Part shown: positions 49,365 to 50,926 of the stretch, piece after piece
Layout of the letters: each line of letters begins with the position of its first letter
Numbering within the stretch: the first letter of the stretch is position 1
Assembly (NCBI GenBank): GCA_965242525.1
Contig: OZ251459.1
Span: 2,137,515 to 2,201,514, forward strand
DNA: 64,000 bases
From: an uncultured Candidatus Binatia bacterium
Lineage (GTDB): Bacteria; Desulfobacterota; Binatia; UBA9968; JAJDTQ01
Direction: 5' to 3'
The notes under the pieces: generated by a model
The model's input: the letters and a program-made list of their open reading frames with translations, nothing else
What the model was told of the DNA's origin: nothing
Database searches by the model: none
Position numbers and translations under genes: made by a program

Positions 49365-49598
49365 ATGCTCACGTCCGCGATTACCTCGAAGGGCCGGACG
49401 ACGCTGCCCAAACCGGTTCGGGAGGCCCTTGGAGTGGGGGCCGGAAACCGTGTGCGCTACGTCATCCTCGACAACGAGGTTCGGGTTCTGCCCATGCGGC
49501 CCATCGGGCGGTTGTTCGGCGCACTGAAGCACGACGGCCCGCGGGTTACGGTGGAGGACATGGAACGCGCCATCACGGAAGGGGCGTGCGAGGAATGA
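49365..49598 (+). CDS. AbrB/SpoVT(MazE)-family antitoxin
   Basis: 77 aa. MLTSAITSKGRTTLPKPVREALGVGAGNRVRYVI is the swapped-hairpin motif. Its stop forms an ATGA junction with the next ATG at 49595-49598. Confidence 0.75.
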   Translation: MLTSAITSKGRTTLPKPVREALGVGAGNRVRYVILDNEVRVLPMRPIGRLFGALKHDGPRVTVEDMERAITEGACEE

Positions 49599-50926
49599 GC
49601 GCGTTGGACACCAACTCCGCAGCCAGTAGAAAACCGCCGGCTAGCTGGCTCTATCGTCCACTGTTTCCGGCTCATTGGGAGCGCAGGCCACTTTACTCCA
49701 TGGCGCAATGGGTCAACGGACTGGCCTATCGGAATATCGAGTTCAGTGCGGCGGGACGCCCGATTATCAAGATCGCAGAGATCAAGGGCGGCATCTCGGA
49801 TCAAACCAGGTTTACATATCAAAACTTCGACGAATCGGTACGCGTGCGTGCAGGCGACCTATTGTTTTCCTGGTCTGGACAGCCGGAAACTTCCATTGAT
49901 GCGTTCCGGTGGCGTGGTCCGGAAGGCTGGTTGAACCAACATATCTTTCGTGTCACTCCCGCCGCCGGAATCGATGCCACCTTCTTTTTCTATCTCTTGC
50001 GATACCTGAATGCTCATTTCGTTGCCATTGCACGGAACAAGCAGACGATAGGTCTCGGACACGTCACAAAGCACGACCTGGAAAATATCGAGGCGGCTCT
50101 ACCCGACCGCCAGGAGCAACGCGCCATCGCTCACATCCTGGGCACGCTGGACGACAAGATCGAGTTGAACCGGCGCATGAACGAGACGCTGGAGGCCATG
50201 GCGCGGGCGCTGTTCCAGTCATGGTTCGTCGATTTCGATCCCGTGCACGCCAAGATGGAAGGCCGTGATACCGGCCTCCCCAAGCCAATCTCCGACCTCT
50301 TCCCCGATCACCTCGTGGATTCCGAGCGTGGCGAGATCCCCGAGGGATGGAAAATCAAGTCCCTGAGAGAATGTTTCCGTCTTACGATGGGGCAATCACC
50401 CCCGGGCAACACCTACAATGACCGTAGCGACGGGTTGCCTTTCTTTCAGGGACGAACTGACTTCGGGTTTCGATTTCCCGAGAATCGGAAATTCTGCACT
50501 GCTCCAACGCGGGTCGCTCAACCTGGGGATACGCTTGTCAGTGTCAGAGCGCCCGTGGGAGACATCAACATGGCATGGGAAGAATGCTGCATTGGACGCG
50601 GCGTTGCCGCACTCCGGCACCAGTCGGGTTCAAGCTCGTTCACCTATTACTCGGCTTGGGCAGTACAGAACAAAATCAGAGAGTATGAGGACACGGGTAC
50701 GGTGTTCGGAGCCATCAATCGAAAACAATTTGAAGCACTCCAGACGCTGGAACCCTCACCGGATATTGTCAATGCGTTCGACGCCCAAGCTGGACCGGTA
50801 GATGTCCGCATCAGGAACAACGTAACCGAGTCCCGAATCCTTACGACCCTGAGAGAAATCTTGCTGCCCAAGTTGATCTCCGGCGAAACCCGCCTCCGAG
50901 ACGCCGCGGAGCAGGCGGATTTGTAG
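49595..50926 (+). CDS. hsdS: Type I restriction-modification specificity subunit (orphan), with vapC-like first codons
   Basis: Two target-recognition domains separated by the conserved spacer [48 protein letters not shown], plus the distal conserved helix [15 protein letters not shown]. The N-terminus MSALDTN resembles a PIN/VapC start. No hsdM or hsdR occurs in the window. Confidence 0.85.
   Translation: [443 protein letters not shown]

Follow-up and report, generated by a model that had tools for sequence, protein, structure and literature searches.

Introduction

Toxin-antitoxin (TA) modules of the PIN type which are coupled to type I restriction-modification (R-M) genes are known (PMC5499597), and HEPN/MNT modules have been found to cluster with R-M operons (PMC3710099). 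In Lactococcus, plasmid-borne orphan HsdS subunits are active with M and R subunits that are encoded at a distance (PMC12418389). In our study, a 64,000-nucleotide stretch of contig OZ251459.1 from an uncultured Candidatus Binatia bacterium (hereafter the window; positions are counted from its first letter) has been analysed around a vapB-like antitoxin gene and the hsdS specificity gene which overlaps its end. Comparison with related loci (designated by L numbers) and with related HsdS proteins (designated by P numbers) has shown that a single in-frame deletion joined codon 7 of a vapC toxin gene to the hsdS gene downstream of it. The product is most likely an orphan specificity subunit, which would work with HsdM and HsdR made elsewhere in the genome. 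In the literature searched, no description of a vapC-hsdS chimera or of an MNT::HsdS fusion was found.

In comparison to the lactococcal orphan subunits, the window gene is likewise a full-length hsdS with two target recognition domains (TRDs), intact conserved helices, no linked hsdM or hsdR, and TRD reassortment between strains. However, it is chromosomal and part of a defence island that goes back to a complete type I locus; a toxin gene has supplied its start codon and first seven codons, and its activity in trans is a prediction. With the VapBC modules of type I R-M operons it has in common the antitoxin family, the ATGA junction and the place between hsdM and hsdS (as in L089 and L004), whereas the window has lost the toxin save for seven codons. 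The loci with a HEPN gene and MNT::HsdS (L002, L007 and 27 of the 80 reference loci) share 84% protein identity with the window over TRD1, the conserved regions and TRD2, and the same linker after the MNT domain, but the window is without the MNT domain, the upstream HEPN gene, hsdM and hsdR. As in other operon gene fusions made by in-frame deletion, there was one deletion with both breakpoints in coding sequence and the frame was kept; here, on the other hand, the seven surviving upstream codons donate translation signals and no domain.

Origin of the chimeric hsdS gene

The antitoxin gene (49365-49598, + strand) encodes 77 amino acids of the AbrB/MazE/PrlF type (PF04014 MazE/AbrB, E 2e-7; PrlF weak) and its open reading frame (ORF) is intact, the toxin being gone. 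Reading of the sequence confirmed the overlap that the earlier note had placed at 49595: the antitoxin stop codon TGA (49596-49598) is overlapped by the ATG at 49595-49597, giving an ATGA (49595-49598, + strand) which is the native vapB-vapC junction and is present in the same form between vapB and vapC of L004 and L005. From this ATG an ORF of 443 amino acids (49595-50926, + strand) is read, which begins with MSALDTN and continues as an HsdS with two TRDs.

The intact antitoxin-vapC pair which the earlier note had proposed to look for in related genomes was found in L004, L005, L006 and L089. The first three of these occupy the same position in the chromosome as the window: aldehyde-oxidase genes stand to the left and opp genes to the right, and identity over the flanks is 94-97%. 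Their order is antitoxin, ATGA, an intact 135-amino-acid PIN VapC, a 42-nt spacer and an MNT::HsdS of 542/523 amino acids. The VapC of L004 starts MIALDTNVLVRYLV (MIALDTNVLV...), and its residues 2-124 match positions 1-117 of the PIN profile. The window antitoxin is 84-92% identical to the antitoxins which precede intact PIN VapC in L004, L005 and L089, and 92% is the value for L004, L005 and L006. As L004 and L005 keep an intact vapC at this very site, the view that vapC was deleted and that hsdS is now read from its start has held.

Both edges of the deletion could be placed to the base. On the toxin side, the window DNA from 49354 to 49615 is 92% identical to the L004 antitoxin and vapC codons 1-7, and the blastn homology stops exactly at window 49615, which corresponds to L004 10251 and to the end of vapC codon 7; it picks up again at 50114, beyond a differing TRD1. 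On the specificity side, codon 107 onward of the 544-amino-acid MNT::HsdS of L002 (HSTAGRKPPANWLYHPLFPAHW) aligns with the window from 49616. Likewise, in P0002 (84% identical) the residues DYVVLAH, followed by STAGRKPPANWLYHPLFPAHW, line up with the window HsdS, with homology from residue 8. The vapC side of the junction reads ...GGATACCAAC|GTTCTC in L004 (longer stretch ...GAATGATCGCGTTGGATACCAAC|GTTCTC), the hsdS side reads ...TTGGCACAT|TCCACAGCCGGTAGAAAACCG in L002 (longer stretch ...GTGTTGGCACAT|TCCACAGCCGGTAGAAAACCGCCGGCT), and the window, between 49615 and 49616, reads ...GGACACCAAC|TCCGCAGCCAGTAGAAAACCG (longer stretch ...GAATGAGCGCGTTGGACACCAAC|TCCGCAGCCAGTAGAAAACCGCCGGCT). The comparison thus shows a single in-frame deletion, which joined vapC codon 7 to the post-MNT linker of hsdS. 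The switch from VapC to HsdS takes place at residue 8 and not after roughly 20 residues, as had been estimated earlier.

The first seven codons of the gene (49595-49615, + strand) are, by this alignment, a true vapC remnant and not a chance resemblance, because the window DNA is 92% identical to L004 and the homology ends exactly at codon 7; the suggestion that MSALDTN is a VapC N-terminus is thereby borne out. The start M[ST][AV]LDT[NS] was found only behind this antitoxin, and the N-termini of stand-alone and MNT-fused HsdS relatives differ from it, so that the extension is not shared by orthologs lacking the antitoxin neighbour, a pattern which the earlier note had named as contrary to a toxin origin. 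Lost from the window are the remaining 387 nt of vapC, the spacer and about 106 MNT-domain codons, together about 0.75 kb; had a HEPN gene stood between, as it does in L007 and L089, the loss would have been up to about 1.45 kb. The loss of the MNT domain of about 106 residues, which the HsdS of the closest relatives carries, is invisible from the window alone. By tblastn, the window shows no remnant of PIN (query from L004), NTase, HEPN or HsdM; in particular, searches with the NTase domain and with HEPN gave no window match, and the HEPN / MNT::HsdS architecture is not present. Although the AbrB/SpoVT/MazE-fold antitoxin gene is there, no PIN toxin gene follows it, and with the toxin reduced to seven codons the locus is no longer a TA module.

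Two further features of the junction were considered and rejected. To the left of both breakpoints, at a distance of a few bases, there is a similar GTTGG(A)CAC, but it is out of register and was given no weight as microhomology. The drop in G+C content at about 49.6 kb was not accepted as a sign of foreign insertion: the TRDs have 51-55% G+C in all related loci, vapB, vapC, MNT and HEPN have 63-66%, and the step is, as judged from these values, a by-product of the deletion, which placed low- and high-G+C parts side by side.

Decay of vapC was also observed elsewhere, independently of this deletion. A remnant of 79 amino acids is present in L002 (9187-9426) and one of 30 amino acids in L007 (10231-10323); L007 retains the antitoxin gene; upstream of the L002 remnant, no match to the antitoxin was obtained.

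Apart from its first seven codons, the chimeric ORF has been shown by profile and locus comparison to be a complete two-TRD HsdS which keeps the vapC start codon and the ATGA overlap. PF01420 matches residues 27-200 and PADLOC Specificity_I (a 403-position profile) residues 27-439, in agreement with the earlier assignment as a full two-TRD protein, and a Pfam scan of the first 35 residues gave no match. The part from the former MNT-TRD1 linker through TRD1 (49616-50098, + strand) aligns with L002 MNT::HsdS from codon 107 onward and with L007. It is followed by the central conserved region (50099-50255, + strand), which holds the HsdM-contacting helix of type I enzymes and is near-identical in L002, L004, L005 and L007. 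The linker and TRD2 (50256-50827, + strand) come next; TRD2 is related to the HsdS structures PDB 5ybb/3okg, and from about 50350 this part is an exchangeable cassette, since L001 and L003 are collinear with the window to about 50352 and then fully divergent. The C-terminal conserved region with the stop codon (50828-50926, + strand) is conserved in all relatives. Two TRDs, a conserved helix between them and a C-terminal conserved helix after them are present, as expected of a type I specificity subunit, and the gene, though its history is unusual, is a typical HsdS. An hsdS shufflon is not indicated: tblastn of the HsdS on the whole window returned only the gene itself, and the Pfam and PADLOC scans of neighbouring genes brought up no recombinase.

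Spread, age and selection

The closest HsdS protein matches were found to form three groups, namely the same protein called from Met36 (P0001), proteins starting with M[ST][AV]LDT[NS]S, and many MNT-fused proteins of 530-645 amino acids with an N-terminal MNT-type nucleotidyltransferase domain (PF18765/PF01909). The same junction occurs in the window, in L001, L003 and L088, and in the proteins P0037, P0041, P0043, P0049 and P0056, and at least nine diverged variants which share it have kept the ORF intact. L001 has an identical antitoxin, the same junction and the same TRD1 with a different TRD2. At least four unrelated TRD2 alleles stand on the one junction and TRD1, and the same cassettes are present in unfused genes (the window TRD2 in L004 and L002, the L001 TRD2 in L005 and L007). 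The breakpoints of TRD exchange fall within the central conserved region and its linker. From this distribution it has been shown that the deletion happened once and is old, because an identical junction is found in several assemblies which have since diverged and exchanged their TRD2 cassettes.

TRD reassortment is also apparent more widely among close strains, where TRD1 types A, B and C are found in several combinations with TRD2 types x, y, z and q (window 50350-50830; L001, L003, L004, L005, L007).

The ratio of non-synonymous to synonymous substitution rates (dN/dS) of TRD1 and the central conserved region CR1 is 0.15-0.19 inside the fused lineage, the window and L003 differing by 28 synonymous and 17 non-synonymous changes; the unfused hsdS pair L007-L002 gave 0.12. 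The chimeric hsdS is intact and, by these ratios, under purifying selection. The antitoxin ORF is also unbroken in every member of the fused lineage, with dN/dS of 0.44 inside that lineage (8 synonymous and 10 non-synonymous changes) and 0.12-0.18 versus L004/L005. The C-terminal third of AbrB-type antitoxins is the toxin-binding part. At its positions of at least 90% conservation, the members of the fused lineage show 1, 1, 3, 1 and 3 deviations, versus 0 and 0 where vapC is intact, and the DNA-binding N-terminal half is still well conserved. This suggests relaxed constraint on toxin binding in the fused lineage, the counts being small and no proof.

Upstream sequence and expression signals

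A spacer of only 17 nt (49348-49364, + strand) separates the stop of the preceding Schlafen/AlbA_2 gene (49347) from the antitoxin ATG, and it holds a GGGGAGAG ribosome-binding site. At this place the alignment of L004, L005 and the more distant L089 shows a conserved segment of about 150 nt between the Schlafen-like gene and the antitoxin (window 49347-49365 was compared with L004 9833-10000 and L089 9762-10000), which the window, L001, L003 and L088 lack. AGGGAG is shared by the two edges of this segment in L004, which suggests a second small deletion. The segment gave no Rfam match and no significant fold. A terminator scan returned one terminator-like site only; it lies on the opposite strand and does not exceed what chance would give.

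Possible function and alternative explanations

Our preferred explanation, to which we give a probability of roughly 0.8, is that the gene is an in-frame-deletion chimera encoding an orphan HsdS which pairs with HsdM and HsdR made elsewhere. Translation would begin at the vapC start and be coupled to vapB through the native ATGA, and transcription would proceed together with the upstream genes of the same strand rather than from a TA promoter. VapB would persist without its toxin because the translation signals of hsdS lie in its ORF, perhaps serving also as a DNA-binding regulator. An orphan HsdS working with distant HsdM and HsdR is the most likely state, as read from the gene and from the lactococcal analogy: pairing in trans is inferred because the gene is under purifying selection, the helices which contact HsdM are intact and TRD exchange fits such a role.

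As the earlier note had stated for the neighbourhood, neither hsdM nor hsdR was found in the window. Pfam scans of its ten largest unassigned ORFs (N6_Mtase/HsdM_N, HSDR_N) did not find them; these ORFs matched SecA, sigma-54, CTP synthase, aldehyde oxidase, transporters, an SNF2 helicase and an N6_N4 methylase. A tblastn search of the whole 64 kb with an HsdM gave no match, and as the HsdR query was a 60-amino-acid N-terminal fragment only, the absence of hsdR from the window depends mainly on the Pfam scan. The sole methylase in the window is an N6_N4_Mtase (19203-20936, - strand). A complete type I R-M locus, with hsdR, hsdM and hsdS together, is thus not present here, nor do hsdM or hsdR occur within 10 kb in L003, L004, L005 and L088. 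Among related HsdS loci in reference genomes hsdM lies within 10 kb (upstream) in 66 of 80, and therefore the orphan state is unusual for this HsdS family.

Several observations weigh against the preferred explanation. The 64-kb window holds no partner HsdM or HsdR, and none of the 120 closest relatives of the L002 HsdM that were listed lies on the source contig, a negative which, the family being very large, extends only down to 78% identity. The promoter scan found no sigma-70-like site in 48800-51200, the AGGA directly ahead of the chimeric ATG is too close for a classical Shine-Dalgarno sequence, and automatic gene callers start the protein at Met36 (49700) in P0001 (408 amino acids), P0003 and P0085. 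The island has decayed, with hsdM and hsdR lost, an SDH protease truncated and vapC decayed independently in L002 and L007. The low dN/dS could also partly reflect the import of TRD1 and conserved regions from functional copies by recombination.

Some of these points lend themselves to other explanations. The choice of the gene callers would be correct if translation began at Met36, leaving 105 nt including MSALDTN as an untranslated leftover, which we hold to be improbable. Such a start would truncate TRD1, because stand-alone and MNT-fused relatives share the conserved residues 8-35 (WLYxPxFPxxWxRxxLYS) and HsdS profiles align from residue 25-27, so that the first TRD1 strand would go; moreover, these residues are kept in frame in all variants, including P0049 with its one-codon (3-nt) indel, and the GGGAG about 20 nt before the Met36 ATG is too far for a Shine-Dalgarno sequence. 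The real start is likely, on this conservation, to be the vapC-derived ATG or the in-frame GTG at 49586, three codons upstream. The earlier note had pictured a recombination or insertion which deleted vapC and put hsdS in its place under TA promoter and translational control; in this account the antitoxin would also exert autoregulation. The retained ATGA and vapC codons 1-7 and the well conserved DNA-binding half of the antitoxin agree with this picture, and its deletion part stands. Insertion or replacement has to be given up, however, as hsdS was already the downstream neighbour of vapC (42 nt beyond the intact gene in L004/L005, and likewise downstream in L089 and L007). Promoter control fares no better, the upstream segment of about 150 nt being missing with 17 nt left and no promoter-like site; it is unsupported, and co-transcription with the upstream genes, which is inferred from these same three features, would be at least as likely. 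Taken whole, the insertion account has little probability.

The main rival to an orphan subunit active in trans is a dead relic, in which hsdS became functionless after hsdM and hsdR were lost and the fusion is a neutral scar not yet disabled. The lack of hsdM and hsdR in the window and within 10 kb in four related loci speaks for it, as do the truncated or decayed neighbours (the SDH protease, the vapC remnants of L002 and L007) and the fact that L007 holds just a 131-amino-acid N6_Mtase fragment. We nevertheless consider it unlikely, since the ORF has stayed intact in at least nine diverged variants, dN/dS after the deletion (0.15-0.19) is the same as for hsdS of full R-M loci, the P0049 indel is in frame, and exchange has brought at least four TRD2 cassettes onto the one junction. 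A quite different possibility is that the conserved block of an NsnB-like ATPase, a 159-amino-acid protein, a Schlafen-like ATPase, VapB, HsdS and PDDEXK_9 could be a self-contained module, in which HsdS would provide DNA recognition without HsdM and HsdR and VapB would be a dedicated regulator. This is conceivable because the block persists without hsdM and hsdR in several strains while its hsdS is selected and swaps TRDs; we regard it as very improbable.

The locus does not represent a new kind of system; it is a scar of evolution within a defence island, and a well-documented one. It provides a base-resolved example of defence-island remodelling, in which a toxin and an accessory domain are lost in one deletion, the toxin's translation start passes to a specificity gene, and the product of the deletion then persists, diversifies and stays selected. 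If the orphan HsdS is indeed active in trans, these bacteria would change their restriction specificity by means of a detached S gene, as lactococci do. For annotation the locus carries two warnings: pipelines take Met36 as the start, so that the chimeric N-terminus escapes them, and an antitoxin gene which stands alone is not necessarily a broken TA pair.

The surrounding island

The locus is, by comparison of gene order, the inner part of a type I R-M defence island. Upstream of the antitoxin lie, on the + strand, an NsnB-like / PDC-M55A ATPase gene (AAA_15/DUF3696 by Pfam and PADLOC; 45678-47024), an ORF of 159 amino acids (47037-47516), which starts MCIIVDAN and looks PIN-like with no Pfam or PADLOC match, and the gene of the Schlafen AlbA_2/HATPase_c_4 protein (47467-49347; Pfam, PADLOC). 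L089 has the same gene string as window 45678-49347 between hsdM and vapB, its order being hsdM, an AAA_21 ATPase gene, genes of 153 and 168 amino acids, a Schlafen-like gene, vapB, vapC, a HEPN fragment, MNT::hsdS and onward. The pair of NsnB-like ATPase and 159-amino-acid protein accompanies the Schlafen-like gene in L003, L005, L007, L088 and L089. At the right end of the island is an AAA-ATPase_like/PDDEXK_9 gene (53838-55439, + strand), whose homologue in L002 is 89% identical by tblastn. In L002 (OY282433.1, from an uncultured gammaproteobacterium), hsdM lies at the left end of the island and hsdR at the right end, with the PDDEXK_9 gene directly before hsdR; in the window this gene adjoins the opp transporter genes. 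The island of the window lineage is bounded by core genes, hsdM and hsdR being gone. The ancestral order would have been hsdM, accessory ATPases, Schlafen-like, vapB, vapC, (HEPN), MNT::hsdS, more accessory genes, PDDEXK_9 and hsdR.

In comparison to the closest relative, L088, where the PDDEXK_9 gene follows hsdS directly through an ATGA, the window carries a 2.9-kb insertion outside the chimera (50916-53820, + strand; blastn collinearity breaks at 50915 and resumes at 53821). It contains a truncated SDH-type serine protease gene, which matches only positions 75-173 of 286 of the profile and whose C-terminal part seems to be continued in another frame (51486-51854), suggesting a frameshift. 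It also contains a complete HEC-01 candidate defence pair, made up of AAA_21 (51906-53147) and DUF4276 (53066-53761), with PADLOC HEC-01A/B E values of 7e-160 and 7e-83.

Fragments of hsdM were seen in the islands of L007 (a 131-amino-acid N6_Mtase, 4657-5052) and L002 (a duplicated hsdM C-terminus, 6585-6770), and these are further signs of island rearrangement and decay. Among the 80 reference loci (L008-L087), an MNT-type nucleotidyltransferase domain is fused N-terminally to HsdS in 27, and a HEPN (PF08780) gene lies just upstream of MNT::hsdS and overlaps it in 18. Outside this set, loci of this kind were noted at 9574-11635 in L002, 10343-12554 in L007 and 11133-13027 in L089. The HEPN and MNT::HsdS arrangement resembles a HEPN-MNT toxin-antitoxin pair in which the antitoxin has become joined to a specificity subunit.

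An island of low G+C content (about 50-55%) with genes on the same strand was noted in the region 11985-20936 of the window. Its genes encode a weak ParB_N match, an SNF2 helicase (13488-15020), a protein with an HTH, a weak radical-SAM match (16048-17688) and HATPase_c_3 (17465-19186), and beside them the N6_N4 DNA methylase lies on the opposite strand (19203-20936). This may be another defence or modification system.

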